The notes below the pieces were generated by a model. It had not been told where the DNA came from and did no database searches. It worked only from the letters and a program-made list of their open reading frames with translations. Source: Pseudodesulfovibrio piezophilus C1TLV30 (GTDB lineage: Bacteria; Desulfobacterota; Desulfovibrionia; Desulfovibrionales; Desulfovibrionaceae). From it: 32,000 bases of DNA. This document shows, piece after piece, positions 4,089 through 31,853 of the stretch (within the stretch, counting starts at the first letter, position 1; each line of letters opens with the position of its first letter). The stretch spans positions 2,370,001 to 2,402,000 of the forward strand of contig NC_020409.1 in assembly GCF_000341895.1 (NCBI RefSeq). The letters run 5' to 3'. Made by a program: the position numbers and the translations under genes.

Positions 4089-4164
4089 GGGTCGTTAACT
4101 CAGTTGGTAGAGTATCTGACTTTTAATCAGAGAGTCACTGGTTCGAACCCAGTACGACCCACCA
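4089..4164 (+). tRNA. tRNA-Lys (anticodon UUU), CCA encoded
   Basis: I folded the cloverleaf by hand: acceptor GGGTCGT/ACGACCC, D arm ACTC/GAGT, anticodon stem TCTGA/TCAGA with loop CTTTTAA, T arm ACTGG-TTCGAAC-CCAGT. Length is 76 nt. Confidence 0.95.
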
Positions 4165-4168
4165 TCGC

Positions 4169-4244: not shown

Positions 4245-4282
4245 TGAATTTCAAGCGGTTAGAGAACGTTTGTTTCTGCCGC

Positions 4283-4321
4283 GTCAGAACGGAAACGGTT
4301 TCGGAAACGGTTTGTTCTGAC
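4283..4321. promoter_or_regulatory. Candidate integrase/Xis arm-type binding sites (left arm)
   Basis: The sequence is GTCAGAAC-GGAAACGGTTTCGGAAACGGTTT-GTTCTGAC. An 8-bp inverted repeat brackets two tandem GAAACGGTTT(C) units. Nearly the same tandem, GGAAACGGTTTCGGGAACGGTTT, occurs at 29393-29416 inside the other island end. Confidence 0.45.
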
Positions 4322-4331
4322 TTCCATATTT

Positions 4332-4364
4332 AAACCGCCCTTAGCTAATCGCTTTGGGCGGTTT
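4332..4364 (-). terminator. Possible terminator hairpin overlapping the integrase 3' end
   Basis: The stem is AAACCGCCC ... GGGCGGTTT (9 bp), followed on the minus strand by TTTAAATAT. Confidence 0.35.
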
Positions 4365-10156: not shown

Positions 10157-10250
10157 AAGCCATGGCTATCGATCTGATGATACACCGGTTCAGGAACGAA
10201 CTTGGCCTTGCTAGGCTTCTTTTCAGGAATCGGCGGAATCGTATCCGCGA

Positions 10251-11108
10251 CTAGACCGGCCAGAATTTCGGATGAGTCCTGCCATCCAGAATTTTCTGAC
10301 CATGAGCAACAAGCGTAGTAGGATCACGAAGCAGCGAGACAACGCCTTGCAGCATCACCAGGGCACTCCCCTGAATATGCCCGCGCTTGGGCACACGGTT
10401 GAATGCCGTCTCCAGCAAATCTACCACCGGCACCACGCGAGGCTCAACAAAGCTCAGACCTGCCAGCTTGCCATGGATGGAACGCAAAGGGGAAAGCGCC
10501 TTGTGCGTCACCTTGTCTTTGCCCTCGAAGCATCGCTTCCAGGTGTCGGCAGCAGCCTTGCCAACCTCATCGAAGAGTGTGCCGCCAAGCTCATTGACCT
10601 CATCCTGCAGACCATGCCCTACGGCATTGTCCGTAGGCGGCAGCAATTTGAAAAATTGCCACCTAAAGCCCAACCGATTACGGACATAATCCGCACTCAC
10701 TGAAGACGAGCCGATCAAGCTTTCCCAGCCAGGATGCTGCACGATCCAGTTTTTGACGGCCTCATCGTACCGATTAAGGAATTGCTCTTTCGCATTCAGG
10801 AAGTCGTCCCGAATGGTAGTCAGTTCGGCCACGATCTCATCGGCCTTGTCTTCTGGAATACCCCAGCCGCCCAGAAAACGGACGCCGGTCCGATCCAACA
10901 GACTCACGGCGCGGGCCTTTAATGTACCGAAAATCCGCAACTCCCTGGGGTCGCGAATCTTTTTACTGCCAAGCGAAGCCAGTTCCTCCGGCGGCAACTC
11001 AGCACCACCAAAGTCGGCATGCGTCAGCTTCTTGCGTGCCGTCCAGATCTTCACATCGAGATTCAGAGCAATCAGGTTGTCGAGAATAGTAATATCCGTA
11101 TTCATCAT
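10251..11108 (-). CDS. Hypothetical protein, middle gene of the AAA+/vWA trio (possibly DUF3150-like, from memory only)
   Basis: The 285-aa ORF has a start that overlaps the AAA+ stop (ATGA at 11105-11108). I see no catalytic motif. The family assignment is a recollection of AAA+/DUF3150/CobT-like trios on plasmids and ICEs, and it was not verified. Confidence 0.7.
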   Translation of the reverse strand: MMNTDITILDNLIALNLDVKIWTARKKLTHADFGGAELPPEELASLGSKKIRDPRELRIFGTLKARAVSLLDRTGVRFLGGWGIPEDKADEIVAELTTIRDDFLNAKEQFLNRYDEAVKNWIVQHPGWESLIGSSSVSADYVRNRLGFRWQFFKLLPPTDNAVGHGLQDEVNELGGTLFDEVGKAAADTWKRCFEGKDKVTHKALSPLRSIHGKLAGLSFVEPRVVPVVDLLETAFNRVPKRGHIQGSALVMLQGVVSLLRDPTTLVAHGQKILDGRTHPKFWPV

Positions 11109-12094
11109 GATTTATTCTCCTCTTGTTGCGGGAATATGCGTTGCGCGAGCTCGTGTAGCACCGTCCGGGTCTCCGGCGTGGCGCGATAGGCGAGAGCGCG
11201 ATCAAGCGCATAGGTCACGGGTTGAATGCCCTGTCGGGCTAACGGTTGGAATCGGACGGTCAAATCCGCCCATCGGATGAGGGTACGAGTCGAGAAGGTG
11301 ACTTCAATGGTTTCGCGGTAATTGCCGTCCGCCTCACCCATGAAGAGCTTGCGCACCTCGTTGGCGTATTCCACCATCTTCGTACGCACTTCCTTGGGGA
11401 GATTCGGACCTTTACGATGGAGCAACTCCTGCTCATCCTCGGATTTGGGGTATCCGATTTCGCACAGCCAAAAGCGGTCCATGAAGGCGAGGTTTTGCCT
11501 TAATGTTCCTTGGTACAGGCCTGTTTCGTCTGTCCCGCCATTGGTGTTGGCCGTGGCCGCAAATCGAAACAGAGGATGCGGCTTGATGACTTCACCGCCA
11601 TTCTCAGGGATGCACAACGGATCGCCGTCCAGGATACTGTTCAAGCCAGCTGCAGTCGCCGGATCGAGCAGGTCGATTTCGTTGAGCAGGAAGAGACCAC
11701 CGAACTTCATGGCAAGCGCAAGTGGGCCGTACTGGAAGGCCATATTGGAATATTCCACGGTCAGGTGGCCGACCATATCGGGGAACTCTAGCCGACCATG
11801 CCCGGTGATATCGAAGACAGGGGAATTGAGTTTCGCGGCAAGCTGTTTGATGAGGCTCGTTTTGCCGCTGCCAGCCGGTCCGAACACATAGAGCGGGTCT
11901 GATGAGTCCATAAACCAGACAACAGCGTCACGACTGGAATCGTGGAACAGATATTCCGGGTTGAGGTCAGGGGTGAACGAAGATGCGGATGCAAAGCCGC
12001 GCACTGTTCGTTTAGAATTTTTACCGCTGAAAATTGCACCGGCATCATGTTCAGCAGGCTGCAACGCCTTAAATTCTTTGAGGATATCGCTCAT
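11105..12094 (-). CDS. CobS-like / MoxR-type AAA+ ATPase
   Basis: I placed the start at ATG 12094, 6 nt after an AAGGAG SD (12101-12106). Walker A is FGPAGSGKT and Walker B-like is LFLLNEID. The protein is collinear with cobaltochelatase CobS as I recall it (LNPEYLF, KPHPLFRFAATANT, TGLYQGTLRQNLAFMDRF, FSTRTLIRWA). Confidence 0.9.
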   Translation of the reverse strand: MSDILKEFKALQPAEHDAGAIFSGKNSKRTVRGFASASSFTPDLNPEYLFHDSSRDAVVWFMDSSDPLYVFGPAGSGKTSLIKQLAAKLNSPVFDITGHGRLEFPDMVGHLTVEYSNMAFQYGPLALAMKFGGLFLLNEIDLLDPATAAGLNSILDGDPLCIPENGGEVIKPHPLFRFAATANTNGGTDETGLYQGTLRQNLAFMDRFWLCEIGYPKSEDEQELLHRKGPNLPKEVRTKMVEYANEVRKLFMGEADGNYRETIEVTFSTRTLIRWADLTVRFQPLARQGIQPVTYALDRALAYRATPETRTVLHELAQRIFPQQEENKS

Positions 12095-12119
12095 AGTTTT
12101 CTCCTTAGGAAATAGAAAA

Positions 12120-12149
12120 GCCCCTGCTCCACATGAGTGGAGCAGGGGC
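12120..12149 (-). terminator. Intrinsic-terminator-like hairpin in the leader of the AAA+ operon (terminator or attenuator)
   Basis: A perfect 13-bp stem (GCCCCTGCTCCAC-ATGA-GTGGAGCAGGGGC) is followed on the minus strand by TTTTCTATTT, then the SD and ATG within 25 nt. Confidence 0.55.
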
Positions 12150-12382
12150 ATAATCCGCTTTGTATTGAGAGGCTAAAAAAGATTCATTCTTATATGAATA
12201 ATATATGTCTGAAATTTAGCGAAGAGCACATCCATGTCCAAAAGTTTTTTGAAAATGATTATGTTGCTCTTTAAACTTTGGGATCAATGTATACTTTATT
12301 GCTTTGGTAATACAAAATTAATAAAAGCTATATCTTACAGCACTGCAATAGAGGTCTGTCACTATAGCGAGAGGTGTTTCAC

Positions 12383-15247: not shown

Positions 15248-15275
15248 GCTTCAGGTTTGTCTGTTTGTATAACAA

Positions 15276-15307
15276 AAAGCGCATGCCACCCTTATGGCAT
15301 GCGCTTT
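15276..15307. terminator. Bidirectional terminator-like hairpin upstream of hsdM
   Basis: A perfect 13-bp stem (AAAGCGCATGCCA-CCCTTA-TGGCATGCGCTTT) has T-rich tracts on both strands (TTTTTGTTAT on minus, TTTAATTGTCTTGTTTT on plus). Confidence 0.6.
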
Positions 15308-15406
15308 AATTGTCTTGTTTTCTATAAGCATAATTCGTGTTTCACATTTCCGTGCCCGTGTATTATGACTTTTCCCAATCGTACTGAATCTGAAAAGGAA
15401 AACGAA

Positions 15407-17059
15407 ATGACAGCGTTGGAACAATATGCGTTTCTCAAGAATATGGAGAAGCGGCTGTGGGCTGCCGCTTGCAAACTCCTGCCTTCTCTGGATGCGGCTG
15501 TGTACAAGCACGTCGTGCTCGGGTTGGTCTTTCTGAAATATGTCGGGGACAGCTTCGTGCAACGCCAGGAGGAGCTGAAGGCTCAGTTCGCTAACCCCGA
15601 CCATGAGTACTTTCTCGATGATGACCTGGAAGACGAGGAACTCCTGAACGACGAGTTGGAGGAGCGCGACTACTACACCGAGGCCAACGTGTTCTGGGTG
15701 CCGGAGAAAGGCCGCTGGTCCACGTTGCTCGAATGCGTGAAGCTCAACCCCGGCTCCAAGCTGCCCTGGGGGGCGGAATTCAAGAGCGTGGGCAACCTGC
15801 TGGATGATGCCATGGACGCCATCGAGAAGGAGAACCCGGTCCTCAAGAATGTGTTGAGCAAGGACTTTGCCCGGCTTCAGGTGGAAAGCTCCAAGCTGGC
15901 CGAGGTCATGGACCTGATCAACACCATTCCGTTTGAGCATGAGAGCCTGAAGGCCAAGGATATCCTTGGGCATGTGTATGAATATTTCCTGGGGCAGTTC
16001 GCGGCGGCGGAAGGCAAGAAGGGCGGCCAGTATTACACGCCCAAATCCATTGTTACGCTGATCGTTGAGATGCTCCGTCCCTACCAGGGGCGTGTGTATG
16101 ACCCCGCTTGCGGCTCAGGCGGCTTTTTCGTTTCCAGTGAGGAATTCGTCGAGGCCCATGGCGGCAAGGTCGGCAATCTGTCCATCTACGGGCAGGAATC
16201 CAACCCGACGACCTGGAAGCTGGCAGCCATGAACATGGCCATTCGCGGCATTGAGTTCGACTTCGGCAAGGAGCCTGCCGACACCTTTGGCAATGATCAG
16301 CATGCCGACAAGCGCTTTGACTACATCATGGCGAACCCTCCGTTCAACATCAGCGGGTGGGGCGCGAACAAGCTGGCTGACGACGTGCGCTGGAAATACG
16401 GCCTGCCGCCGGACAGCAACGCCAACTTTGCGTGGATGCAGCACATGATCCACCACCTTGGCCCCAAGGGCAAAATGGCCCTGCTGCTGGCCAATGGCTC
16501 CATGTCCACCGCGACCAACGGTGAAGCGGATATCCGCCGTCAGATTGTCGATGCGGATCTGGTGGAATGCATCGTGGCCCTGCCTGGACAGCTTTTCACC
16601 AACACGCAGATCCCGGCCTGTATCTGGTTCCTGAACAAGGACAAATCCAACGGCCAGAATATTGAGACATTGCGTGACCGGACTGGCGAGGTGCTGTTCA
16701 TCGACGCCCGGAATTGCGGCTACATGATCGACCGTGTCCTGCGAGACTTGGACCGCGAGAAAGACATCCTGCGGATAGCGCATACCCTGTTGAATTGGCA
16801 GATGGGCGACAAGGCCGAGACGCCGTATGCGGACGAGGCCGGATTCTGTGCCTCGGTCGAATTGAAGGATATCCGCAAGCATGACTATGTCCTGACGCCG
16901 GGCCGATATGTCGGCGCTCCCGAAGAAGTGGACGACGGCATCCCGTTTGGGGAAAAGATGGCGGTATTAACCTCGACATTGTTTGAGCAGATGGCCGAGG
17001 GGCAGCGGTTGGATGGCGAGATTCGAGCAAACCTGGAGAAGCTGGGCTATGCCGAATAA
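15407..17059 (+). CDS. hsdM: Type I restriction-modification system, DNA methyltransferase subunit M
   Basis: Start is at ATG 15407 (SD AAGGA). The HsdM N-terminal region reads LWAAACKLLPSLDAAVYKHVVLGLVFLKYV. The AdoMet motif I is DPACGSGGFF and the catalytic motif IV is NPPFN. Confidence 0.95.
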   Translation: MTALEQYAFLKNMEKRLWAAACKLLPSLDAAVYKHVVLGLVFLKYVGDSFVQRQEELKAQFANPDHEYFLDDDLEDEELLNDELEERDYYTEANVFWVPEKGRWSTLLECVKLNPGSKLPWGAEFKSVGNLLDDAMDAIEKENPVLKNVLSKDFARLQVESSKLAEVMDLINTIPFEHESLKAKDILGHVYEYFLGQFAAAEGKKGGQYYTPKSIVTLIVEMLRPYQGRVYDPACGSGGFFVSSEEFVEAHGGKVGNLSIYGQESNPTTWKLAAMNMAIRGIEFDFGKEPADTFGNDQHADKRFDYIMANPPFNISGWGANKLADDVRWKYGLPPDSNANFAWMQHMIHHLGPKGKMALLLANGSMSTATNGEADIRRQIVDADLVECIVALPGQLFTNTQIPACIWFLNKDKSNGQNIETLRDRTGEVLFIDARNCGYMIDRVLRDLDREKDILRIAHTLLNWQMGDKAETPYADEAGFCASVELKDIRKHDYVLTPGRYVGAPEEVDDGIPFGEKMAVLTSTLFEQMAEGQRLDGEIRANLEKLGYAE

Positions 17060-18098
17060 CAACGAACGCCCGCAGGGTGAACTACTCGTCTATCAAGGCA
17101 AGGATCTGGATAAGCCGCTTCAGGTGAGGCTTGAAGGTGAATCCGTATGGCTGACTCAAAAGCTGTTGGCAGAACTCTATGGGACTTCCGTCTCTAATAT
17201 AAATCAACATATTTCGTCCATTTACGAAGAGGAGGAGCTGTTGCCTGAGGCAACTATTAAGAAATACTTAATAGTTCAAACCGAGGGAGAACGAGAGGTC
17301 AAGCGGCTGATTGATCACTACAATCTGGACATGATCATTGCCATCGGCTTTCGGGTTCGCTCCAAGCTGGGCACTCAGTTCCGCAAGTGGGCCACAGATC
17401 GATTAAGCGAATATCTCGTCAAAGGCTTTACGCTGGATGATGAGCGCCTCAAGGGCGCGTCCGGTGGCGCTGACTACTTTGAAGAACTGTTGGCGCGGAT
17501 ACGGGAGATCCGAGCCAGCGAAGCCCGTGTTTACCTGATGGTTCGCAACATCTTTTCGTTGGCGAACGACTACCGGGAGGGGGAAAAGGAGACTCAACTC
17601 TTCTTCGCGACGATGCAAAATAAGATGCACTATGCCGCCACGGGGCTGACTGCGGCTGAAATTGTCAAGACTCGCGCCAATGCGGAACTGCGGGACATGG
17701 GGCTGACGAATTACAAAGGCACTCGCGTGCTGAAAAGGGATGTCGAGACGGCCAAGAACTACCTCGACGAAAAAGAGATCGACACCCTCAACCGTATCAC
17801 GGTGATGTTCCTGGATCAGGCGGAATTCCGCGCCCAGCGTCGGCAGAATATCCTTATGGAAGACTGGCAGGGCTTCCTCGACAAGTTCCTGGGCGATGTG
17901 GATCTGCCCGTCCTTGAGGGGGCAGGAAGCGTACGGCACAAGGACGCAGTGACCCACGCGAAAGCGGAATACAACAAGTTCGCCGAGAAGCGGCGTCTTG
18001 AGGAGCAGCAGGAGGCGGATAAGGTCTACATTGAGGACTTGAGGGCTTCTGCCAAGACGTTGGAGCAGGAACGGAGGGCGGGGCGTGATGGGAAGTAG
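17049..18098 (+). CDS. rhuM: RhuM-family protein embedded in the type I R-M operon
   Basis: ATG 17049 overlaps the hsdM stop by 11 nt. LVYQGKDLDKPLQVRLEGESVWLTQKLLAELYGTSVSNINQHI ... NLDMIIAIGFRVRSKLGTQFRKWATDRLSEYLVKGFTLDDERLK matches the RhuM family as I recall it. Confidence 0.85.
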   Translation: MPNNNERPQGELLVYQGKDLDKPLQVRLEGESVWLTQKLLAELYGTSVSNINQHISSIYEEEELLPEATIKKYLIVQTEGEREVKRLIDHYNLDMIIAIGFRVRSKLGTQFRKWATDRLSEYLVKGFTLDDERLKGASGGADYFEELLARIREIRASEARVYLMVRNIFSLANDYREGEKETQLFFATMQNKMHYAATGLTAAEIVKTRANAELRDMGLTNYKGTRVLKRDVETAKNYLDEKEIDTLNRITVMFLDQAEFRAQRRQNILMEDWQGFLDKFLGDVDLPVLEGAGSVRHKDAVTHAKAEYNKFAEKRRLEEQQEADKVYIEDLRASAKTLEQERRAGRDGK

Positions 18099-19404
18099 GG
18101 GAAAAGTACGATCAGAGGAAGTTCAATCTAACAATTGGCGAACCTCTAGGCTTGAAGAACTCGCTACGGTAATCGACTCCCGTCACAAAACGCCGAAGTA
18201 CTCTGAGGATGGCTTACCGATGGTGCGAGTTGTGGATGTGAAGGCCGGTCCGATTGACTTGTCAAACGCAGTTAAAGTTACCCAAGAAGTGTACGAAGAT
18301 TTTTCAAAAGGGCGAGACCCAGAAATTGGTGACCTAATTATTTCGCGAGTAGGTAGCTATGGTAATATTTGCTACGTCAAAACAAATGAAAAATTTTGTT
18401 TAGGGCAGAATACAGCATTCATTGTTCCCAAAATCAATTGGCGGTTTTTATACTATCAATTGCTTTCTCCTCAAGTTCGCACTCAAATTGAAAGCCTTGT
18501 TGTTGGCGCCGTTCAAAAAACAATTAGTCTTAAAAATATAAAGAGCTTAGAGATTGCGACCCCCAGTAAATCTGAACAAAAAGCCATAGCCCACATCCTC
18601 GGCACGCTAGACGACAAGATCGAGCTGAACCGGCGCATGAATGAGACGCTGGAGGCCATGGCACAGGCGTTGTTCAAGAGTTGGTTCGTGGACTTCGATC
18701 CGGTCAAGGCGAAGATGGAAGGCAGGCAGCCCGAAGGCATGGATGCGGAAACAGCGGCCCTCTTCCCCGACAAGCTGGTGGAGTCCGAACTTGGGCTGAT
18801 TCCTGAGGGGTGGGGAGTTGGGCAAATCGGAAACGAAGTAACCGTAGTTGGAGGTAGTACGCCTTCAACCAAGAAGCCGGGATATTGGGATGGGGGGACA
18901 GTCCACTGGACAACGCCCAAGGATCTTTCGGGAAGCAGTGATAAAATAATAATTGAAACAGCTAGAAAGATTACGGAAGAGGGGCTGCAAAAAATTCATT
19001 CTGGCCTATTGCCTGTTGATACGGTGTTGCTTTCTTCTCGTGCTCCTGTTGGCTATCTCGCATTAGCAAAAGTGCCGATCGCAATTAATCAGGGTTATAT
19101 AGGAATGAAATGTGAGAAAGCTCTTTCCCCCGAATATGTTCTTCAATGGTGTGTTTCCGTTATGGATAAAATCCTACAGAGAGCCAGTGGGACCACGTTC
19201 GCTGAAATCAGCAAGAAAAACTTCAAACCTATAGCCGTGGTGGTGCCTTTCGCACAACTGATTAAAATATATTCTAAAATCGTCTCGGACATTTATTCAA
19301 AGATCGAAAACAACCTTAGAGAGAACTCTGAGCTTTCAAACGTTAGGGATACGTTGTTGCCCGAACTTATCTCAGGCAAATTAAATGTGAGTGATTGGCA
19401 ATGA
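18085..19404 (+). CDS. hsdS: Type I restriction-modification system, specificity subunit S
   Basis: Start is GTG 18085 or ATG 18088, overlapping the rhuM stop. Two low-GC target-recognition domains are separated by a high-GC conserved spacer (SEQKAIAHILGTLDDKIELNRRMNETLEAMAQALFKSWFVDFDP). The conserved C-terminal helix reads VRDTLLPELISGKL. Confidence 0.9.
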   Translation: MMGSRGKVRSEEVQSNNWRTSRLEELATVIDSRHKTPKYSEDGLPMVRVVDVKAGPIDLSNAVKVTQEVYEDFSKGRDPEIGDLIISRVGSYGNICYVKTNEKFCLGQNTAFIVPKINWRFLYYQLLSPQVRTQIESLVVGAVQKTISLKNIKSLEIATPSKSEQKAIAHILGTLDDKIELNRRMNETLEAMAQALFKSWFVDFDPVKAKMEGRQPEGMDAETAALFPDKLVESELGLIPEGWGVGQIGNEVTVVGGSTPSTKKPGYWDGGTVHWTTPKDLSGSSDKIIIETARKITEEGLQKIHSGLLPVDTVLLSSRAPVGYLALAKVPIAINQGYIGMKCEKALSPEYVLQWCVSVMDKILQRASGTTFAEISKKNFKPIAVVVPFAQLIKIYSKIVSDIYSKIENNLRENSELSNVRDTLLPELISGKLNVSDWQ

Positions 19405-20057
19405 ACCTTACCCGTTTTGAAGCTAGGTCTGGGCAGGTTATCGATAACAGTTCGCTTGCGCACCTAGGAGATCAAATAAAACGTTTAGAACTTGCGATTA
19501 GAGAAGATGACCCTTCGCTTGTGCTTGATACAGCAAAATCATTCCTCGAAAGCACTTTTAAAACAATACTGGAAGACTATGGGAAAGCAGTAGGGAAAAA
19601 AGAAGACTTAACAGAGCTGTATAAGAAGGTACTTGAGGTTATCGTATTAAATCATGATGATGATGCAAACATAAAATTATCCCAACTGAGTAAAGGAGTG
19701 GTTCATTGGTTAGGCCAACTCCGTAATGCCTATGGTGGAGCCTCGCATGGCAAGGATGGCCAATTCGACAATCCCATCAATATGCCAGAAGCTGAAATGG
19801 TAGCTCAATTTGCTGATGGTTTGGGTTGTTTTCTTATTAGAAAAAAACAACTTCTTGCTGATCCAATCGAAAGACAGCGTTTGCACTACACTGATTATCA
19901 AGAGTTTAATGATTATTTGGATATGACCAGAGATGGCTACGACTTAGGGATAGATCAAATGGGGCCGTTGCCCTACAGCCGGATACTATTCAACATTGAT
20001 GAAGCCGCATATAAGGAACTTCTGATTCAGTTCATGTCAGAAGAAAATGACAACTAA
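19401..20057 (+). CDS. Abi_C-like (abortive-infection C-terminal domain) protein inserted between hsdS and hsdR
   Basis: ATG 19401 overlaps the hsdS TGA (ATGA), and the stop overlaps the hsdR start by 11 nt. [15 protein letters not shown] ... [17 protein letters not shown] resembles the Abi_C family signature (RN....aHG) as I recall it. It is a low-GC insert in a high-GC operon. Confidence 0.6.
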
Positions 20058-23000
20058 CGGTAGCTCCCCCATGATTAACGAAGACGCTCTCGAAAAACTC
20101 GCCATCAGTTGGTTTGAAGACGAAGGCTACACCAACGTTCACGGCCCGGACTTGAACCCCGAGGTGGACGGGAGCGGGGCGCGGGCGCGGCTGGATGACG
20201 TGTTGTTGCTTAACCCGTTGCGTGCGGCCATCGAGCGGATTAATCCCCAGCTTCCGGCAAGCACGGTTGACGAGGTGCTCCATCTGGTTCAGAAGCTGTC
20301 CCACCCGATCACGGTCAAGGCAAACCAGGAATTTCATCGGCTACTCCGCGAGGGCGTGGATGTCAGCTACAAGCGGGACGGGGAGAACGTCGAAGACCGC
20401 GCCTTCCTCATTGATTTTCACGACGTAAACGCCAACACGTTCTGGATTGTGGATCAGCTCACCATCCGGGGAAGCAAGGGCAATCGTCGTCCCGACCTGA
20501 TCGTGTATCTCAACGGCCTGCCGCTGGCCGTCATCGAGTTGAAGTCCCCTGTCAAAGAAGACGTTGGCGTTGACGAGGCCTTTCATCAGCTCCAGACCTA
20601 CAAGCAGGAGTTGGTGGACCTTGCCATGTTCAACGAGGCGCTGGTGGCCTCGGACGGCATCCAGGCCCGTGTGGGTTCCCTGACCGCCAATCGTGAATGG
20701 TTCCTGCCATGGCGTGCCGTAAAGTCGGAAGAGGACCGCCCGTCCTTCGAGTATGAACTCAAGGGCATTGTGAAAGGCTTCTTCGATCGGACGTTGCTCC
20801 TGGAATACATCCGCGATTTCGTCCTGTTCGAGGCGGACGATTCCAGCACGATCAAGAAGATCGCCAGCTACCACCAGTTCCACGGCGTACGCCAAGCCGT
20901 GGCCGCAGCCGTGAAAGCGGCTTCGGAACATGCACCGAACGAGCTGAAAGGGCGCGGCGGCGTCATCTGGCACACGCAGGGTTCCGGCAAATCCATCTCC
21001 ATGTGCTGTCTCGCCGGAAAACTCATCCGCCATCCCGATTTGGCCAACCCGACCCTCGTTGTTATCACCGACCGAAACGACCTGGACGGGCAGCTCTACG
21101 AGACTTTCTGCAAGGCCGGTGATCTGCTGGCCGACAGTCCGATACAGGCGGACGATCGGGGCGAACTCCGCCAAATTCTCAACGAGAAGCAGTCCGGTGG
21201 CATCGTCTTTACCACCATCCAGAAATTTTCCCTCGACAAGGACGAGACCAAATTCCCGGTCTTGTCCGACCGCCGGAACATCATCGTCATCGCCGACGAG
21301 TGCCACCGCTCCCAGTACGGCTTCAAGGGCAAGCTGGATGAAAAGCGGAATGCGTTCGTTGCCGGGTATGCCCAGCACATGCGCGACGCCTTGCCCAACG
21401 CCACGTTCACCGGCTTCACCGGCACGCCCATATCCCAAGAGGACAAGAACACCCAGGCGGTGTTTGGCGAATACGTCAGTATCTACGACATCGAGCAGGC
21501 CCAGCTTGATGGCGCGACCGTCCCTATCTTCTACGAAAGCCGCTTGGCCAAGCTCGACCTCAATCAGGATGAGTTGCCGCAAATCGATGAAAAAGTAGAC
21601 GAGGTAACGGAGGATGAGGAGACCTCCCAGGCCGAAAAAACCAAGGGCAAGTGGGCAGCCCTGGCCAAGCTGGTCGGGGCGGAACCCCGTATCCGGCAGG
21701 TAGCCGAAGATCTGGTCGACCACTTTGAAGCCCGCCTGGAGGTCGTGGACGGCAAGGCCATGATCGTCTGCATGAGCCGTGATATCTGCGTTGCAATGTT
21801 CGATGCGCTCGTGAAATTGCGTCCGCAATGGGCAGGAAATCAATTGGCTGACGGCACCTATGATCCATCGGACGGGGCAATCAGGATCATCATGACGGCC
21901 AGCGCGTCCGATCGGCGGGAGTTGCAGAACCACCACTACAGCAAGACCCAGAAGAAGGCGCTGGAGAAACGGTTCAAAGACCTGGATGATCCGCTGAAGA
22001 TCGTCATCGTCCGCGACATGTGGCTGACCGGCTTCGACGCACCGTGCGCACACACCATGTACATCGACAAGCCCATGAAGGGGCACAACCTCATGCAGGC
22101 CATCGCTCGCGTAAACCGCGTGTTCAAGGGCAAGCAAGGCGGTCTGGTTGTCGACTACATCGGCATCGCCAGCGAACTGAAGAACGCGCTGCATACCTAC
22201 ACCCGGAGCGGCGGGCGTGGAGGCCAGCCGACTATCGATGTGTACGAGGCGTTCTATGTGCTGAAGGAGAAACTCCAGACGGCACGCGATATCTTCCACA
22301 AGTTCGATTACTCAGCCTATAAGACCAAGGCTGTCGAGCTGCTGCCCCCTGCTGCGGACTTTGTTGTCGCCACCGAGGAGCGCAAGAAAGAGTTTTTTGA
22401 TGTCGTGGTCGCCATGACCCGTGCCCAGTCCCTTTGCGGCACCCTGGACGAAGCCGTGGCCATACGGGATGAGATCACCTTCTTTCAGGCCGTGAAGATC
22501 TTCATCGACAAGACGACAGCCACCAAGGGCAAACAAACGCGGCAAGAAAAAGACGCGATCCTGAATCAACTCCTCGCCCGCGCCGTGGTCCCTGAAGGCG
22601 TGGACGACATCTTCGCTCTGGCGGGCCTCGACAAGCCGGATATCTCCATTTTGTCCGAAGAATTCCTCGACGACGTCCGCAACATGGAGCACCGCAACCT
22701 AGCCGTCGAATTGCTCGAAAAATTGCTCAGAGACGAAATTAGCGCCCGTTCACGCCGCAATACGACGCAGGAGCGCAAGTTCTCCGAGCGGCTCAAGGAA
22801 TCCCTGCTCAAATACCGTAATCGCGCCATCGAAACCGCCCAGGTCATCGAAGAACTTATCCAGATGGCCAAGGACTTGAACGAAGCGCTCAAGCGCGGCG
22901 ACAAGCTCGGCCTCAACCCCAGCGAACTGGCATTCTATGACGCCCTGGAAGAGAACGAGTCTGCCGTCCGTGAATTAGGTGATGACGTCCTCAAGAAGAT

Positions 23001-23202
23001 AGCCAAGGAACTGACCGAGAAGCTCAGGAAGAATGTGACGGTAGACTGGCAGCATAAGGATTCGGTCCGAGCAAAGATGCGGAACTTGGTTCGCAGGATT
23101 TTGAAGAAGTACAAGTACCCGCCGGATGCCCAGAAAGAGGCCGTGGCCGAGGTGCTGCGGCAGGCCGAGAGCTTGGCGGATGATTGGAGCGAGGCAGCGT
23201 AA
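20047..23202 (+). CDS. hsdR: Type I restriction-modification system, restriction/helicase subunit R
   Basis: The 1051-aa ORF has an N-terminal PD-(D/E)xK motif ([20 protein letters not shown]). Helicase motif I is HTQGSGKS and motif II is IADECHRSQ. Motif VI-like is MQAIARVNR. Confidence 0.95.
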
Positions 23203-23264: not shown

Positions 23265-25355
23265 ATGGCCAAGAAAAAGAATAAGAAAAATAAAAAAGAC
23301 ATAGAGTTTGTAAAGACCTTAAAGCTGTTGGCCAATGACTCTGATCAGCTGATTGCGTATTTGAAAGGCTCACAAGCAATTCTGAAGTCTAGACTTTGGG
23401 AAATGGTTCATGCCGAACTTGATGAGTCTAGTTCTGAAGAAATACGCCAATTCCTTGAAGACGGGGATATGCTACGGAAGCTTCATGACGAGGCTCTGGA
23501 GGGTGCAAACCGCTACCAATCGTTATTGAAGGAACTCTCATGGGAGATGGTTCTTGCGAGCTTTGCGGCATATCTTGAAGCTTGGTATTTTAATGCTAAG
23601 AATGACCAGCAATATGAAAGCAAGCGCAATAATTTGATTCCTGTCTTACAGAGGGTAGCGGTCAAAAAGAATCAATTTCCAAGAAAGAACTGGGGAAGTA
23701 GGCAGTCAATTGATAGTGCCTTGGATTCTATCCGCGACAGCTTGCTCAATGGAGAGCCTATCAAGGCATATTCCCTCTTTGCCGCTTGGGATGCCGTTTT
23801 AGAAGTCGAGGCCATAATTAAGGACTTTTGCTACAAGGGTTGGGAGGTCTCCCACGCAAGTGGTTTGGACATAAAACCCGAGTCCCTTGATGCTTGGAAG
23901 GCATGGGCTCTGACTAATCATAAATTTCAGATAATCGATCGATTCTACCGAGAATTTCCATATATTATCTACCCTGAGATTGTAGAGGATATTCAAGAGA
24001 GGATGGACAACGAAGTCACTGTCACTCAGAGAATTGAAGCCCTCGGTGGATACATCTTTATTCAGGAAATGCTCGGCGTTGATGAAGTTGAATTCGAAGG
24101 GGTCACTGTTGATTTACGGGAAACCATAGATCTTATTGGCCGCTTCGACTCCTGCTACAAGAGTAATTACCTTCCCTTTATGGAGAGAATGAAAAACGAA
24201 GGGCTTGATTATGCGAATTCGATCGTCCAGACTATGCAGGATCAGATATCTCAAAATATGGACGCATGTATACGACAAGGACTTAATCCAATAGCGTATC
24301 ACAAAGAAATTATGGGTAATGTTCATCACCCTTGCATTAGCGTCAGAACAAGTGACGAAATGCTTGAAATGATGATGCAATATGACCAAATTCCTCCAGA
24401 TGCTGCCAGGCGAAAAGCATGCCTTACTGCGCTAGAGCTGTTTGCTGGGCCACCTCATATGGGTGGGGTTGATAATGGGCAGTTTATGCGAACTCCGAAG
24501 AATAATTACATCATAATACCGCGTTTTTTCCATGGGGATGTAAAAACCGCATTGTTGAACCGTATAGTTAGGAAGAAAGGTAGCGAAAAAGGGAAAGGAA
24601 AAGCAGGCAACAAGCCCTATAGTGCCAATATGGAACATTCTTTGGCTCAACGTTTTGAAAGCCAAGGCTACAAGGCTATTGCCAGTTGGGACTATAAGAA
24701 TGGTGAATCCCAAAAGGGCGAGGTCGACGTTATTGCGTACAAAGATGGCTACCTCTTTATTGTTGAAGCAAAGCTCACATATTTTCGTACTGATGTTGAA
24801 GCAATCTATAGGCACGAGCAAGAATTGGAAGGTGCAGTCGGACAATTAAACAGAGCGCTGGAGGCGATTAAGGCGAACTTCAATGAGCTTAGGCAGAGTC
24901 TGATGATCAACGAAGACCTTTCTGACCTACAAATTGTCCCACTTATCGTTTCGAATTCCCCAGAGTTTGATTTTAAGAAGTACTCTGGGATTCCCAAACT
25001 GAGTCAATTTGAGCTGCAGTGTTTGCTTGATCCTGGAGCTTTTATTTTCGCAAAGACTCAAATGAGCATTTACAATGAATATTGCAAATTGACTCTATGC
25101 GGGAACCAAGAAGAGCAAAGGACAGCTGTCGAAAAGCTAATGCAAGGCGATCAATTTGTTCTTGAAAATAAAAAGAAGCAGGAGCAATATCTCGCTGAAG
25201 CTGAATTGATCGCATCTCAGCCTGAAAGGTTAATTGGTGCAATCAATTCGAAATACTTTTGGCAAGAGCTTGAAGAAAACACTGACGTTGTCAGTGGGCC
25301 AATAGAGCAAACATTTACTATGAAAAATGGTGATGAGATCCGTTACGTAGTTTAG
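23265..25355 (+). CDS. Hypothetical 696-aa protein with C-terminal NERD-like PD-(D/E)xK nuclease domain
   Basis: A low-GC ORF starts 62 nt after hsdR with a Lys-rich N-terminus. Residues ~470-505 read MEHSLAQRFESQGYKAI...GEVDVIAYKDGYLFIVEAKL, giving D488 ... E501-x-K503. I recognise no family in the N-terminal ~450 aa. Confidence 0.75.
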   Translation: MAKKKNKKNKKDIEFVKTLKLLANDSDQLIAYLKGSQAILKSRLWEMVHAELDESSSEEIRQFLEDGDMLRKLHDEALEGANRYQSLLKELSWEMVLASFAAYLEAWYFNAKNDQQYESKRNNLIPVLQRVAVKKNQFPRKNWGSRQSIDSALDSIRDSLLNGEPIKAYSLFAAWDAVLEVEAIIKDFCYKGWEVSHASGLDIKPESLDAWKAWALTNHKFQIIDRFYREFPYIIYPEIVEDIQERMDNEVTVTQRIEALGGYIFIQEMLGVDEVEFEGVTVDLRETIDLIGRFDSCYKSNYLPFMERMKNEGLDYANSIVQTMQDQISQNMDACIRQGLNPIAYHKEIMGNVHHPCISVRTSDEMLEMMMQYDQIPPDAARRKACLTALELFAGPPHMGGVDNGQFMRTPKNNYIIIPRFFHGDVKTALLNRIVRKKGSEKGKGKAGNKPYSANMEHSLAQRFESQGYKAIASWDYKNGESQKGEVDVIAYKDGYLFIVEAKLTYFRTDVEAIYRHEQELEGAVGQLNRALEAIKANFNELRQSLMINEDLSDLQIVPLIVSNSPEFDFKKYSGIPKLSQFELQCLLDPGAFIFAKTQMSIYNEYCKLTLCGNQEEQRTAVEKLMQGDQFVLENKKKQEQYLAEAELIASQPERLIGAINSKYFWQELEENTDVVSGPIEQTFTMKNGDEIRYVV

Positions 25356-25426
25356 GCAATCACATACTCGCAAAACTTCCGTCTCGCTGTCCGCAGGGCA
25401 GAACTATTAAATGAACGGAGGTTCAA

Positions 25427-26296
25427 ATGAGTACTGTGGAAACGCTGGCTACGGATCGTTTCATCCCTGCAATTAATCTGTTTGTCACTAAGCACTGCAA
25501 CATGCGGTGCAGATTTTGTTTTGGCTCATGCAAAATGCGCTCGCCCCTATCGTCTCAAGATCAAGATGGGGTCTTTGTTGATGTCATAAGACAATGCCAT
25601 CAACAGGGTATCTCAAAAATCACTTTCGTAGGCGGAGAGCCTCTACTTTATCCAAAGCTTAAACTGTTAATTAGACTTGCTCACGACCTAGGTATAACGA
25701 CCTGCGTAGTATCCAATGGGGCCTTGCTGACAAAAGAGTGGCTGCGTGAAGTGTCAGGCATGCTAGACTGGATTGGGATTAGTATTGATAGCCTGTCGGT
25801 AGATACGAATTGGTCGATTGGTAGAATTTCAAACGGTGTCCCAATGTCAAAATTAGTTTATGAGCAGTTGGTTGATTGGGTGCATGATTACGGCATGCGC
25901 CTCAAGATCAACACGACAGTTTGTCGATGGAATCATCATGAAGACATGTCTTCGTTTTACCGTGATACGAATCCTCATCGAATAAAAATGTTTCAAGCTC
26001 TCACGATCGATGGGGTTAATGACGAGGAGTCTACCAAGTTCTCTGTGTCAGACGAACAATTCACTCATTACGTTGAGCGTCATCTGAGGCAAGGGATTAA
26101 AGCGGTGGCAGAGGCCTCAAACGACATGGTGGGAAGTTATCTGATGGTTTCACCTGACGGGTGCTTTTTTGATAACACTCATGGCTCATATCGATTAAGC
26201 AGGCCAATCAGTAGGGTTGGCTTTTCCAGTGCCATTAAGGATATCTCGGTCAATCACACAAAGTTTATGGATCGTGGGGGCATGTATCGTTGGTAG
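25427..26296 (+). CDS. Prokaryotic viperin (pVip), radical SAM antiviral enzyme
   Basis: A GGAGG SD precedes the start. The radical SAM CxxxCxxC motif is in NLFVTKHCNMRCRFCFG. The protein is collinear with vertebrate viperin throughout: KITFVGGEP, VVSNGALLTKEW, LDWIGISIDS, LKINTTVCRWNHHEDM, NPHRIKMFQAL, VGSYLMVSPDG, and the C-terminal DRGGMYRW (compare KRGGKYIW). Confidence 0.9.
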   Translation: MSTVETLATDRFIPAINLFVTKHCNMRCRFCFGSCKMRSPLSSQDQDGVFVDVIRQCHQQGISKITFVGGEPLLYPKLKLLIRLAHDLGITTCVVSNGALLTKEWLREVSGMLDWIGISIDSLSVDTNWSIGRISNGVPMSKLVYEQLVDWVHDYGMRLKINTTVCRWNHHEDMSSFYRDTNPHRIKMFQALTIDGVNDEESTKFSVSDEQFTHYVERHLRQGIKAVAEASNDMVGSYLMVSPDGCFFDNTHGSYRLSRPISRVGFSSAIKDISVNHTKFMDRGGMYRW

Positions 26297-26751: not shown

Positions 26752-27390
26752 TTATCGTCCAGGCATAATTTCAAACAGTTTCAGCAGAGCTTCGGCTTTG
26801 CTTCTTTGCGGAACCTGCGACCCGCCATACGCGTCTCCCTTAAACGGGTAGTGTATTTTCGATTCTTTTTTAGCCAGGTACTGTGCCTGATCCCAGACAT
26901 GCCACATGAGGTAATTGAAATCATGGCTGCTTTTCCGAACCATAATTCCATGGCGAGTGTATGATCCGGGTACATTCATAGCATCAATATGACCATATGC
27001 CTTGGTGCAGTCTCCAAGGGAAAGTCCCCACAAATGCTGAACTCTATGGCGCAAAGTAAAAGGGTTTCTGACATCTTGCCCATTTAAGACTACCCATACG
27101 TGATAATGAAAATTACCCACGTATGAGAGCTTGCTGAATTCCTTAGCCCAAAAATAGAGCAATTTAAGCTTGTACCGTCCCATGGAATGCTTGAAGGAAT
27201 CCATAAAGCGAGTAATCCTCATGTTATCAAGGGCATAAGGTATGTTCTCTGGGTGAGTGAGCGTTAGTCTGAACATTAGGCATTTGGGCATGTCGTCTAT
27301 GGCGAACATAATCAATGAGTAAAGCGACAACCAAAGATCAATGCGATAGTTCTGGTTGAGTATTGAAGTTGTTGTGTCGTGTGTATACAT
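26752..27390 (-). CDS. YagK/YfjJ (inovirus Gp2-like) family protein with HUH-type motif
   Basis: The 212-aa ORF contains GNFHYHVWVVLNG (His-hydrophobic-His). Size and position next to a DUF3987/YfjI-like gene mirror the yfjI-yfjJ pair of the E. coli CP4-57 island, from memory. Confidence 0.55.
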   Translation of the reverse strand: MYTHDTTTSILNQNYRIDLWLSLYSLIMFAIDDMPKCLMFRLTLTHPENIPYALDNMRITRFMDSFKHSMGRYKLKLLYFWAKEFSKLSYVGNFHYHVWVVLNGQDVRNPFTLRHRVQHLWGLSLGDCTKAYGHIDAMNVPGSYTRHGIMVRKSSHDFNYLMWHVWDQAQYLAKKESKIHYPFKGDAYGGSQVPQRSKAEALLKLFEIMPGR

Positions 27391-27533
27391 AGCTAAGATC
27401 TCTTATTTATTATTACTACTATATCCCGAAGTTGGGTTTTCAAAACTGCCGTGTATAAGCATTTCATTTTTCTGATTCCCCTGTTTAAGGGCAATTCATG
27501 TTGTCTGAAATGTTAATGAATATTGAGTGGTCA

Positions 27534-27565
27534 GGTGACATCCGGGACATGTCACGGATGTCACC
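27534..27565. promoter_or_regulatory. Composite palindrome between the YfjI-like and YfjJ-like genes (operator or origin candidate)
   Basis: GGTGACATCCG-GGACATGTCA-CGGATGTCACC is a perfect 11-bp inverted repeat around a spacer that contains the palindrome GACATGTC. The GTGACA/TGTCAC unit occurs three times (once as GTGACA, twice as TGTCAC). Confidence 0.4.
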
Positions 27566-27573
27566 ATGATATC

Positions 27574-29250
27574 CTATGCCATATGAAACAAATGAGGGTT
27601 GATGATGCAGGTCCGACTAGCGCCACTTTTGTAGATTACCATATAGCCGTGGGCCTGTAGGAGCTTCAGCGCCGGAAGGGTTTCCTCCCTCTTCCAGTGC
27701 TTCGCCCGATATATCTCCCGCACGTTGACCTCATACTCGCCTCTTTCCACCAAGTATTCGAGAATCGCGTGTGCGCGGTCCAACTTGTCTTTCGCCTTAA
27801 GGTTAAGGGCAACCTTGGTGTGCTGTTCGAAGAACCATGCCAGTTGCATCCCGGCGCTAACGGACTCTTTAGTTATAAGGGTCTCGTAGGGCTCTCCGTT
27901 CTCACAACACCTGAGAATATGGATGATCGCGATCAACCTGAGACACGTACCGGCCAACTTTCGATAAAAGGCCTGAAGGACTGGCGGGTTCACATCGTTT
28001 GCCGCCTCAGCCTTTGCGTGCGCTTCAAGTCCATGCCAACCCTGAAGAGCTTGGTCCTCAAAGTGAAGCATGATGCCTTCATCCGTCGCACTAGAGGCTT
28101 CGAACAGCTTGTTGGCGGTCTCTTCAAGCCACTTCGTACTGCTGGTAGGTACTTCGGAAGTTCCGCCACCGACTGCAGGCGAATAAAGCTCTGGTGGCAA
28201 CAAGCACAGAAAACGGGCGACTAATCCATCATCTTGGAGGGCTTCTTCGCTGAGCAGCTTGACGGCTGTGCCATCTTGAGTCGCTATCAGGATTGTCACT
28301 GACGGATTCTCGATCCGAACAGGCTCTCCTGCCTTGGTGCTGGAAAATGATTCTCCGCCATACGCTTGCAAAAGGAAGTCGTCTCTATTGGCAGGGATCT
28401 TCTTAAGCGATCCAAGCTCGGCGGCTGCAATCGCAATTTTACCATTTTGCTTGGCCGCTTCTTTTTCCAACCCCTCAGGTGTAAACTTGAAGGTAAGCAA
28501 AACCGGCAAATACTGTTTGGCTGGTATGGATTTTTGAAGTTCGAGGATTTCTTGAGCCGCAACCTCTAAATCGCCTTCCTTTGCTGCGGCATTCTCTAAG
28601 GTTCGGATACGTTTTTTGATAAGCCTTTCAGTGGTTTCGAGAAGCTCTTTATTCTCGAAAAAGGACCCTTGAAGCCTTTTTTCGATTGCCATAATTGGCC
28701 TCAGAACTTCTTCCATGAGCGGAGACTTCATCTTGCCAGACAGCATCATTATCAAAAGGTAGAGAGTTACAAGTTCAGTGTGGTTTTTGTGCCGCATCAC
28801 TTTGAACTGTCCTCGCAGCAAGATGCTGACAAAACCTAACAGCAAAGCAACCAGTATCCCCGGATGCACAGCGAACGCTTTGGATAAGTCCTCGACCCAT
28901 TTTCGGGCACGGCCTGGGAGAGCTTCAATCGGGGCAAGGAAGTCTACAACTTGCCTTTGGGCGAGAGGGAAGATTTGCACAGTTTTGATCCATGCGTGCC
29001 ATCTGCTCTTGTCCAAGTTTTCTTGGTCCTCTAGGGCAAAGGTCAGTCTTTCTTTTTCCGCTTGCCTCAGAGCCTTTTCCTCGTTGTGTTGCGCGAGGTT
29101 AACTTTGATTGCGTCGGTTTGTGAAAGAGAGAAAGAGCTTCCATGATTGTAGTTAACTAGTGGAGCCGGTATTGGCGGGTCCTGCTCAATTATGGGGATC
29201 CTGTTGGGCCCCACACCTTTGAACTTCCATTCAGGTTCAGAATCTAACAT
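27574..29250 (-). CDS. YfjI / DUF3987-like island protein (function call from context and memory)
   Basis: The ORF spans 27574..29337. I placed the start at ATG 29250 (GGAG SD 8 nt upstream) rather than the TTG at 29337. It is a large soluble protein at the int-distal end of the island, followed by the YfjJ-like gene. Confidence 0.55.
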   Translation of the reverse strand: MLDSEPEWKFKGVGPNRIPIIEQDPPIPAPLVNYNHGSSFSLSQTDAIKVNLAQHNEEKALRQAEKERLTFALEDQENLDKSRWHAWIKTVQIFPLAQRQVVDFLAPIEALPGRARKWVEDLSKAFAVHPGILVALLLGFVSILLRGQFKVMRHKNHTELVTLYLLIMMLSGKMKSPLMEEVLRPIMAIEKRLQGSFFENKELLETTERLIKKRIRTLENAAAKEGDLEVAAQEILELQKSIPAKQYLPVLLTFKFTPEGLEKEAAKQNGKIAIAAAELGSLKKIPANRDDFLLQAYGGESFSSTKAGEPVRIENPSVTILIATQDGTAVKLLSEEALQDDGLVARFLCLLPPELYSPAVGGGTSEVPTSSTKWLEETANKLFEASSATDEGIMLHFEDQALQGWHGLEAHAKAEAANDVNPPVLQAFYRKLAGTCLRLIAIIHILRCCENGEPYETLITKESVSAGMQLAWFFEQHTKVALNLKAKDKLDRAHAILEYLVERGEYEVNVREIYRAKHWKREETLPALKLLQAHGYMVIYKSGASRTCIINPHLFHMA

Positions 29251-29392
29251 TCTTGATTCTCCTGGTTTGGGTTTGGACTGGCCACAGCAGCCAGCCTCAC
29301 CCCTACAAGGGCGACATTTCGTGTCGCCCTGCGACAAAGGAGATTTTTTTCATCAAAAAAGTATGAACACGCTCCCTCCATCATATGATGAA

Positions 29393-30630: not shown

Positions 30631-31853
30631 AGCTATTCTTATGACAAGAAGGGGCGATTGGTTGAAGCACGGCTGGATAATCGACTCGTTTGTCAATGCT
30701 CTTATGACAAAGAGGGTAGGCGGCAACAGGATTGTTTCCCCATGACAGCAGGGCAGCAAAGGCGAAACTATCAGTATGACATGGGCAATCGACTCTAACA
30801 TGCCGGAAATAAAGGATATGCTCATGATAAGCAGGGGTTTCGTTCCATTTGGAATCACGAGGGCAAGTATACATTGTATGCCTATCGCCTGACTACCGCC
30901 TGATGAAAGTTGAGAAGCCGGATGCCGAGGTTGTTTTCGATTTTACTCATGATGAGAATGGGCAGCGTGCGGTCAAATATGCCAATGGGCAGCTGGTTGA
31001 AGGCTATGAGTGGCTTGACTTGAATCGGCTTGCAGGGTTTCATGATGGTGATGTCGGCTATCGTTTTTCTTACGATGAAGATGCGCATACTCCCAATGCC
31101 ATGCAGGATGAATATGGAGGGATGGCTATTCTGCACTATGATCAGGTCGGCTCACTGCGAGTGGTCGCCGACGAATCTGGTAACGTGATAAAAGAAATAC
31201 TCTACGATCCCTTCGGTGGTATTCTCAACGATTCCAATCCAGACCTCCATATTCCCATTGGCTTCGCAGGCGGGCTGCATGATCGGGATTTGGGCTTTGT
31301 CCGTTTTAGCTGGCGGGATTACAATACCTATACCGGGCGTTGGACCGCACCTGATCCCATGGGTGATGCAGGCGGCGATCCGGATTGGTATGGATATTGT
31401 CTGAATGATCCTGTGAATGGTATAGATCCAAATGGATTATTTGGATTTTTGATTCCTTTTATGACAGGTATGGCTGGGGCCACGGCCTTAGGTTCTGCGG
31501 GGTCATACGTCGCGGCAAAGGCCGCAGATTGGTTTGGAGGAAAGACCGACAAGAATTATGGTAAGGACAAGCCAACGGCTACTGAAGGTGTTCATAATGC
31601 CATGGATAAGGTTATAAATATCAATTCCGGTATTGTCGGTGCAGCAGGCGCTGCGTCGGGGGCAGCTGCTCTTCCTCGTGTCGCAGGAGCTGTCTTGCAG
31701 CATCCGGACAAGATTGCGGCTGGGAGCAAGGGCGCTTATGATTTCATATCAAGTTTTGCATTAGAAGGACCTCCTGAACCCTCTCTTCCTGGTTATGTGG
31801 GAATAGGTATGAGCGAAGCCTATAAATGGTACAAAAGGAATAAAGGGAAATAA
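30631..31853 (+). pseudogene. 5'-truncated, disrupted Rhs/YD-repeat toxin fragment with intact core-end motif and C-terminal toxin domain
   Basis: YD repeats are present (SYSYDKKGRLVEARLDN..CSYDKEGRR, YQYDMGNRL). There is an in-frame TAA at 30796-30798 and a frameshift near 30885. An open 3' part runs 30849/30903..31853 and carries the Rhs core end YDPFGG...RFSWRDYNTYTGRWTAPDP and DPVNGIDPNGL (PxxxxDPxGL, 31410-31439). A 137-aa Gly/Ala-rich tail follows. Confidence 0.8.

Follow-up and report, generated by a model that had tools for sequence, protein, structure and literature searches.

We have analyzed 32,000 nucleotides (nt) of the Pseudodesulfovibrio piezophilus C1TLV30 genome (assembly GCF_000341895.1, contig NC_020409.1, positions 2,370,001 to 2,402,000 of the forward strand), referred to here as the window and numbered from its first letter. 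The subject of this report is a pair of genes on the plus strand of the window, and the short stretch of DNA that separates them. The upstream gene (23265-25355, ATG start), taken from a list of open reading frames (ORFs) with their translations, encodes a 696-amino acid (aa) protein that is identical to P. piezophilus protein P0001, named 'PDDEXK family nuclease' by NCBI. The downstream gene (25427-26296, ATG start), taken from the same list and from family profiles, encodes a 289-aa prokaryotic viperin (pVip). Exactly 71 nt lie between them. Across 23-26.5 kb of the window the guanine-cytosine (GC) content is ~0.42-0.45 compared with ~0.58 in the upstream hsdR gene, and the nuclease-pVip pair sits in a low-GC insert that adjoins a type I restriction-modification (R-M) system within a tRNA-linked island. 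A first-pass annotation of this DNA had reported a low-GC, 696-aa ORF 71 nt upstream of a viperin on the same strand, and its coordinates are exact.

That annotation had also recognized the viperin, a call that the profile searches bear out. The 289-aa protein scores 283.3 bits against NCBIfam NF038283 viperin_w_prok (cut-off 180), 4.5e-82 against the PADLOC pVip model and 1.2e-19 against Radical_SAM PF04055, and its translation contains the cluster motif CNMRCRFC (CxxxCxxC type) and a C-terminal RGGMYRW. The nearest solved structures are themselves viperins (9dfn, 2e-40; mouse viperin 5vsl, 1e-36), and the alignments run through to their ends. Taken together, these matches identify the protein as a genuine prokaryotic viperin, a predicted radical-SAM enzyme, and by homology to tested pVips it would make 3'-deoxy-3',4'-didehydro (ddh) nucleotide chain terminators.

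The C-terminal part of the 696-aa protein contains a PD-(D/E)xK core at approximately residues 454-580 (24624-25004, plus strand; E457, D488, E501-x-K503 and Q527), delineated by conservation, Foldseek and weak profile matches, which is followed by a helical region with a terminal beta-hairpin in the model secondary structure (residues 581-696; 25005-25352, plus strand). The motif GEVDVIAYKDGYLFIVEAKL, on which the first-pass annotation had based a PD-(D/E)xK or NERD-like assignment, is present in the protein. D488, E501 and K503 are invariant in 6 close homologues and in 20 diverse ones, and among 119 full-length members D488, K503 and Q527 are conserved in 100%, E457 in 94% and E501 in 82%. 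An AlphaFold model of the full-length protein (predicted local distance difference test score, pLDDT, 75.8) forms the core from a helix (454-465), strands (470-503), a further helix and a strand (556-563), and Foldseek matches to this model fall only on the nuclease core. All of the structures matched are PD-(D/E)xK nucleases, and they include the R2 endonuclease domain, AF1548, R.BspD6I, Can2, Hjc, McrC and Bax1, with 1y88, 2p14 and 1ob8 matching at probabilities of 0.97-1.0, and the list also holds ligand-activated nucleases, namely Can2, a VC1899/Card1-like protein and Cdn1. Profile matches of the core to Hjc, NERD and YraN are weak, and a profile search of PDB sequences returned marginal Hjc and AF1548 matches only. 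The conserved residues and the modeled fold indicate a PD-(D/E)xK nuclease with an intact active site, and to this extent the original assignment holds. Strict membership of the Pfam NERD family does not, as PF08378 is sub-threshold in the 696-aa protein (15.4 bits compared with a gathering cut-off of 22.1, E=0.028) and, with matches up to E<=1 allowed, no more than 7 of 20 family members hit it. The nuclease can fairly be described as NERD-like.

Two further features of the C-terminal region were observed. A second polar cluster (E567, D569, K578, S580 and E583, ~24963-25013) lies just after the canonical core and is 80-94% conserved in the 119 members. In addition, relatives P0024, P0045, P0057 and P0122 carry TPR repeats beyond the point that corresponds to residue 696, and C-terminal TPR repeats and lengths of up to 1139 aa characterize a subset composed of P0024, P0041, P0045, P0057, P0122 and P0137, which suggests an added protein-recognition module.

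The remainder of the protein, a domain of ~440 aa that AlphaFold and family comparison show to be almost all alpha-helical and family-specific (N-domain; 23265-24599, plus strand), has no counterpart among the folds and families searched. Scans of the 696-aa protein with Pfam, NCBIfam and PHROGs gave nothing significant beyond the weak nuclease-core matches, with no Pfam match at all and no NCBIfam or PHROG family in the first 450 residues, and a model of the N-domain alone (pLDDT 74.5) found no credible Foldseek match in PDB (best E 1.7) or BFVD (best E 0.8). Across these same databases there is no similarity to CARF, SAVED or other known nucleotide sensors. The first-pass annotation had described the N-terminal ~450 residues as unrecognizable, which is no longer the case, as they can be matched to a catalogued family. 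The PADLOC-DB v2 model PDLC02906, 'Viperin-associated NERD', hits the window protein directly at 3.5e-24, in a match confined to residues 459-666 and profile positions 412-541 of 542. Other relatives match the same model end to end (P0035 at positions 5-542 and P0029 at positions 13-541), and profile-profile comparison (hhalign) of the window clade with the PADLOC-type clade gives 99.9% probability and E=1.1e-34 over 591 columns, spanning residues 10-644 at ~21% identity over aligned columns. Given this full-length homology, the N-terminal 450 residues are a divergent copy of the PADLOC family's own N-domain. A combined profile finds the N-domain in 114 of the 119 full-size family members, in which its sole strongly conserved residue is K220 (85%). 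The 696-aa protein is thus identified, on profile evidence, as a divergent member of a catalogued, functionally undescribed family of viperin-associated nucleases, and the pattern of conservation is what one would expect of a catalytic module held constant and, attached to it, a rapidly evolving domain for recognition or regulation.

In order to determine how constant the pairing with viperin is, we examined the neighbors of the homologues. The close clade was searched for in a protein index of 5.8 billion clusters, in GTDB species genomes, in JGI metagenomes and in IMG/VR, and proved very rare, with six distinct loci including the window once duplicates were merged (L006 with L001, L009 with L005 and L010 with L002; loci are designated L and family proteins P). 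Searching the protein index with a single sequence or with a 20-sequence profile returned the same six proteins, and none of the loci came from the viral contigs of IMG/VR. A HMMER search of 1.84 billion representatives extended the family to 262 clusters at E<=1e-3. All five close loci other than the window (44-57% identity) are followed on the same strand by a viperin, at a distance of 69-72 nt, and have unrelated flanks. Seven distant members were also sampled, of which P0024 and P0137 were left out as uninformative since their contigs end right after the gene. In the other five (P0009, P0035, P0016, P0041 and P0045; 24-31% identity in full-length alignments) a viperin again follows on the same strand, after 52-78 nt. 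A viperin therefore follows the nuclease in 10 of 10 informative related loci, over a range of 24-59% protein identity, with a gap of 52-78 nt and unrelated flanks, many of which are genes of defense systems or mobile elements (R-M, GmrSD, helicase, integrase and insertion sequence (IS) genes). The following genes in these loci score 245-316 bits on viperin_w_prok (cut-off 180). With tblastn, plasmids gave two remote matches that cover the core only (~140 residues) and have no viperin neighbor, and phages gave no match.

The two genes are also inherited together, with distances between the nucleases rising along with those between the pVips over the 10 loci (Mantel r=0.76, p=0.002). Comparison of two of the close loci reveals a sharp recombination breakpoint at the end of the nuclease gene or in the spacer: between L010 (4998-7985) and L004 (164-3004), DNA identity is ~40-65% along the nuclease gene and 89-100% from the gene end or spacer through the viperin. 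The spacer and pVip thus behave as one cassette, next to which nuclease alleles can be exchanged. Because a viperin follows in every informative locus, the genes are co-inherited, and an RNA element described below bridges them both, the sequence comparisons strongly favor a dedicated partnership of the nuclease with this class of pVip over an independent neighborhood. The first-pass annotation had left two options, a functional partner of the viperin or a stand-alone, single-gene defense nuclease, and it is the former that is strongly favored by these data and the latter that they disfavor. As an example of partnership it had conjectured that the nuclease might act on stalled transcripts or replication intermediates. 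It had also named conditions under which its claim would fail, among them missing linkage to viperins and variable motif residues; the linkage is present and the residues are conserved. Two public gene calls are too short: the 642-aa nuclease P0004 (L002:8001) extends to 687 aa in the duplicate locus (L010:4998), and the L005 viperin is called from 3412 when a conserved ATG and Shine-Dalgarno (SD) sequence are found at 3304 (L005:3304-3412).

The spacer DNA is conserved among loci whose proteins are only 44-59% identical. In the six close loci the spacer core shows 74% mean pairwise identity compared with 48% at third codon positions and 46% at four-fold sites, the synonymous sites having been taken from the adjoining, most conserved coding segments, and this excess points to purifying selection on the spacer. 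The region 5' of the nuclease gene shows no conservation, and for this reason a conserved promoter region serving the whole module was considered and rejected. From conservation and pairing statistics, the spacer and the first four codons of pVip are jointly predicted to form an RNA leader of four nested helices (25361-25438, plus strand). The outermost helix, H1, pairs 25361-25363 with 25436-25438, and its 5' strand begins ~6 nt past the nuclease stop codon. H2 (25366-25370 with 25428-25432) covers the UG of the AUG and codon 2. H3 (25376-25385 with 25411-25421) pairs an anti-SD strand with the SD sequence of pVip, a GGAGG at 25417-25421 that is invariant in the six loci and lies in the 3' strand of the helix. 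The innermost element, H4, is a hairpin (25386-25392 with 25396-25402), and on the 3' side of the leader, between H4 and H3, is the conserved but unpaired sequence AACUAUUAA (25402-25410); all of these elements are on the plus strand.

In the alignment of the six sequences, 89.9% of cells are paired, a level reached by none of 500 shuffles and well above the 29-38% seen in slid controls, and one of 500 shuffles equals the covariation score. Pairing in H2 is complete (100%) and includes two compensatory pairs, which split the window and L001 (pVip start MSTV) from the other four loci (MDYV), and in H3 a single G-C pair is replaced by U-A. The six close loci, L013 and L015 all pair the first 22 nt past the nuclease stop with the start region of pVip more than their shuffles do. 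Five further lineages with unrelated spacer sequences are predicted to adopt the same topology, in which an outer stem closes over the start region, a hairpin lies within it and a stretch on the 3' side is left unpaired. Rfam 15 holds no family for the spacer, its single match being at chance level (E=2.5) and inside the pVip coding sequence. A loose DNA pattern of the leader gave at least 120 chance matches in viral contigs; among the matches listed none had the full motif or a viperin, and the full motif was found only in the six close-clade loci. A consensus scan of the spacer found no intrinsic terminator and no sigma-70-like promoter, which fits with co-transcription of both genes. Sequestration of the SD sequence was also tried as a stand-alone statistic and was dropped as weak compared with shuffles. 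Conservation and covariation support a predicted fold whose helices would bury the ribosome-binding site and AUG of pVip. The conserved leader over the start site is the new element at this locus, and it was absent from the first-pass annotation.

How does this arrangement compare with systems already described? The pairing of nuclease and viperin is already catalogued, as the name of PADLOC model PDLC02906, which accompanies the pVip models PDLC02903-02905, shows that curators saw the association. The window protein belongs to the same family end to end and occupies the same place directly 5' of pVip; it differs in coming from a divergent clade that is matched directly by the model in its C-terminal part only and that is rare, at six loci. 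Relative to single-gene pVips, the pVip of the window is a bona fide member that is likewise found in a defense island, but here a large nuclease gene always stands 5' of it and a conserved RNA structure would bury its start site. Other enzymes are known to accompany viperins: CMPK2-like nucleotide kinases are found with 12% of bacterial viperins (10.1101/2023.09.13.557418), and the RNases HicA and RelE adjoin pVips (PMC10865869). These partnerships likewise link viperin to a second enzyme that acts on nucleotides or nucleic acids, whereas the partner reported here is an unrelated multidomain PD-(D/E)xK protein of 650-800 aa, of which neither paper makes mention. ZwsA, a NERD-domain protein, is reported to be an RNA endonuclease active against RNA phages (bioRxiv 10.64898/2026.04.06.716636). 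It resembles the window nuclease in being a multidomain defense protein with a NERD-type E/D/E-x-K site, and its activity on RNA has been demonstrated, but ZwsA has a different architecture, with VHS, DUF647 and S4 domains, and needs no viperin beside it; the likeness considered here is that of a shared superfamily. The ligand-activated nucleases of the Can2/Card1 and Cap4 types carry a CARF or SAVED sensor, which is not found in the window nuclease. Finally, the leader recalls translationally coupled genes with long-range RNA pairing, such as the coat-replicase pair of MS2 and the ribosomal-protein operons. There too, the start region of the second gene is paired with sequence just past the stop of the first, and a stem encloses the SD. 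Here, however, the spacer is long (52-78 nt) and additionally holds an inner hairpin and a loop that is conserved though unpaired, and coupling is predicted from the structure.

On balance, we think it somewhat more probable than the reverse that the pair is a two-gene defense module in which RNA structure represses translation of pVip and ties it to that of the nuclease. Both genes would be co-transcribed, with the leader hiding the SD and start codon of pVip. A ribosome that terminates at the end of the nuclease gene would melt the outer helices, so that pVip would be made sparingly and only when the nuclease is made; coupling is proposed because the 5' strand of the outermost helices begins so soon (~6 nt) after the nuclease stop. 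Once made, pVip would turn a nucleoside triphosphate (NTP) into its ddh chain-terminating form and poison phage transcription. The nuclease may serve as a second effector, whose core would add cleavage of phage nucleic acid to the block imposed by ddh-nucleotides, while the variable N-domain, with the TPR repeats of some relatives, would recognize an infection cue or a nucleic-acid substrate. The substrate, trigger and role proposed here for the nuclease are what we infer from its pattern of conservation, and RNA is a plausible substrate given the example of ZwsA.

Several observations weigh against this model or restrict it. The leader structure was chosen from the same six related sequences that were used to score it, the two double changes in H2 amount to a single sub-clade split, and in single loci pairing of the SD region is only modestly above shuffles (p 0-0.3). 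Stop-to-start pairing is not significant in L011, L012 and L136, leaving 3 of 6 independent lineages significant. H3, which hides the SD, is beyond the reach of a terminating ribosome; being too far from the stop, it may not be fully opened by coupling alone, and something more may be needed. At the level of the proteins, pVips that are 96% identical, behind spacers that are 88% identical, stand beside nucleases that are 45% identical (L010 and L004), which speaks against tight residue-by-residue co-adaptation and limits every model of the pair. A literature search found no paper describing or testing a NERD or PD-(D/E)xK partner of viperins, and no functional data for the nuclease family. Finally, the pVips tested by Bernheim et al. 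(2021) reportedly protected when cloned alone and expressed from foreign promoters, so a partner is not generally required.

Alternatively, pVip may not make chain terminators unchecked and may instead belong to a gated circuit with the nuclease, in which either an infection-sensing nuclease cuts the leader to unmask the viperin, or a ddh-nucleotide or ddh-terminated RNA activates the nuclease. Taken as a whole we hold such a circuit to be unlikely. In the former version the nuclease would be made constitutively, sense infection through its N-domain and cleave its own mRNA leader, for example at the unpaired AACUAUUAA, which would free the ribosome-binding site of pVip and confine viperin to infected cells. 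A leader that buries SD and AUG, an internal loop on the 3' side whose sequence is conserved although unpaired, and a spacer that moves with pVip as one cassette would all suit such a switch, as would the sequence-selective RNA endonuclease activity reported for ZwsA. Set against this, distant lineages keep the topology and not the loop sequence, so a sequence-specific cleavage site is not family-wide, and we regard the switch as decidedly improbable. It must also be borne in mind that PD-(D/E)xK enzymes are mostly DNases. The latter version would make viperin the signal generator and the nuclease the effector, with a ddh-nucleotide or ddh-ended RNA binding the N-domain much as cyclic oligonucleotides activate Can2/Card1. 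Strict synteny is what one would expect of such a pair, tight control of pVip translation would suit a signaling enzyme, and ligand-activated Can2, VC1899/Card1-like and Cdn1 nucleases are among the Foldseek matches. However, the N-domain has no likeness to CARF, SAVED or known nucleotide sensors and is poorly conserved, with only K220 reaching 85%, whereas a pocket for one unchanging small molecule would be expected to be better conserved, and the known action of pVips is direct, through the chain terminators that they make. We therefore give this version very little credence.

Two other explanations do without any circuit. Conservation of the spacer could reflect a DNA element, either an internal promoter or operator at the palindrome CTGTC-N-GACAG, or a recombination site. 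The short inner inverted repeat could bind a dimeric protein, the recombination breakpoint is at or near the spacer, and XRE-type helix-turn-helix (HTH) genes lie 5' of the module in L003 and L005. Yet the spacer scan found no promoter-like site and HTH genes are missing from most loci. In addition, compensatory changes tie the spacer to coding nucleotides of pVip, which a DNA site would not need, and distant lineages keep the fold and not the sequence. A DNA element thus seems quite unlikely as the source of the conservation. Alternatively, nuclease and pVip may be independent single-gene defenses that are merely adjacent. Defense genes do cluster into islands, the same pVip can stand next to different nuclease alleles, and the remote NERD-like proteins on the two plasmids have no viperin neighbor, although these share only ~140 core residues with the family. 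Against mere adjacency, order, strand and a 52-78-nt gap are fixed in 10 of 10 loci whose surroundings differ, down to 24-31% identity, the distances of the two proteins correlate, and the leader pairs sequence after the nuclease stop with the pVip start. Of the rivals, mere neighborhood is the least compatible with the data, and we consider it highly improbable.

Viperins are a leading example of immunity common to bacteria and animals, and the loci described here show that one class of pVip cannot be separated from a large nuclease whose N-domain evolves fast and is a fold orphan. Counting HicA and RelE, three unrelated nuclease families are now seen next to pVips, a hint that viperins and nucleases may generally act in synergy. 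Without amounting to a new category of system, the locus offers an unstudied route into the regulation and partnering of pVips, and as a compact two-gene system of ~3 kb it bears on whether ddh-nucleotide synthesis is gated, on whether chain termination is joined to cleavage, and on what the N-domain recognizes. Should either version of the gated circuit prove true, it would represent a new regulatory logic for viperins and give a function to the fold-orphan domain of ~440 residues, and if ddh-nucleotides activate the nuclease, viperin would act both as a direct antiviral enzyme and as the source of a signal.

The module is carried on an integrative defense island, in which the order of features is tRNAs, an integrase, an IS200 transposase, a triad of MoxR-type AAA, DUF3150 and VWA genes, the R-M operon, the nuclease-pVip pair, and then a YfjJ-like gene and a DUF3987 gene on the opposite strand. 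The tRNA-Lys(UUU) and tRNA-Glu(CUC) genes are at 4089-4244, with a tyrosine integrase on the minus strand directly after them, and this stretch (4089-5439) is likely the boundary of the integrative island that carries the defense genes. The triad, composed of a MoxR-type AAA (AAA_5/CbbQ_C), a DUF3150 and a VWA-CobT gene, is located at 8567-12151 on the minus strand. It is also found at L001:3243-6838, just 5' of the nuclease-pVip pair in a Desulfotalea metagenome-assembled genome, and may be a co-traveling cargo module of the same type of element.

Immediately 5' of the pair is the type I R-M operon (15257-23202, plus strand), which is of higher GC content and was recognized with Pfam, PADLOC and the GC profile as hsdM, a rhuM-like gene, hsdS, an Abi_C/AbiJ-like gene and hsdR. 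The RhuM-family gene (16983-18098) splits hsdM from hsdS and the Abi_C/AbiJ-like gene (19395-20057) splits hsdS from hsdR, and all genes of the operon, the two inserted ones included, abut or overlap their neighbors. Another member of the nuclease family, P0024 (L014), also lies directly 3' of an hsdR. On the other side, 3' of pVip, a YagK/YfjJ_C/Rep-like gene and a DUF3987 gene occupy 26752-29337 on the minus strand, a pair that is typical of mobile elements. Toward the ends of the window, a fragment resembling YD-shell and RHS proteins is found at 30849-31853 (plus strand), and a cyclic di-GMP-I riboswitch aptamer at 2149-2226 (minus strand; 63.5 bits compared with a gathering score of 35) lies upstream of an ORF at 311-2068 (minus strand).

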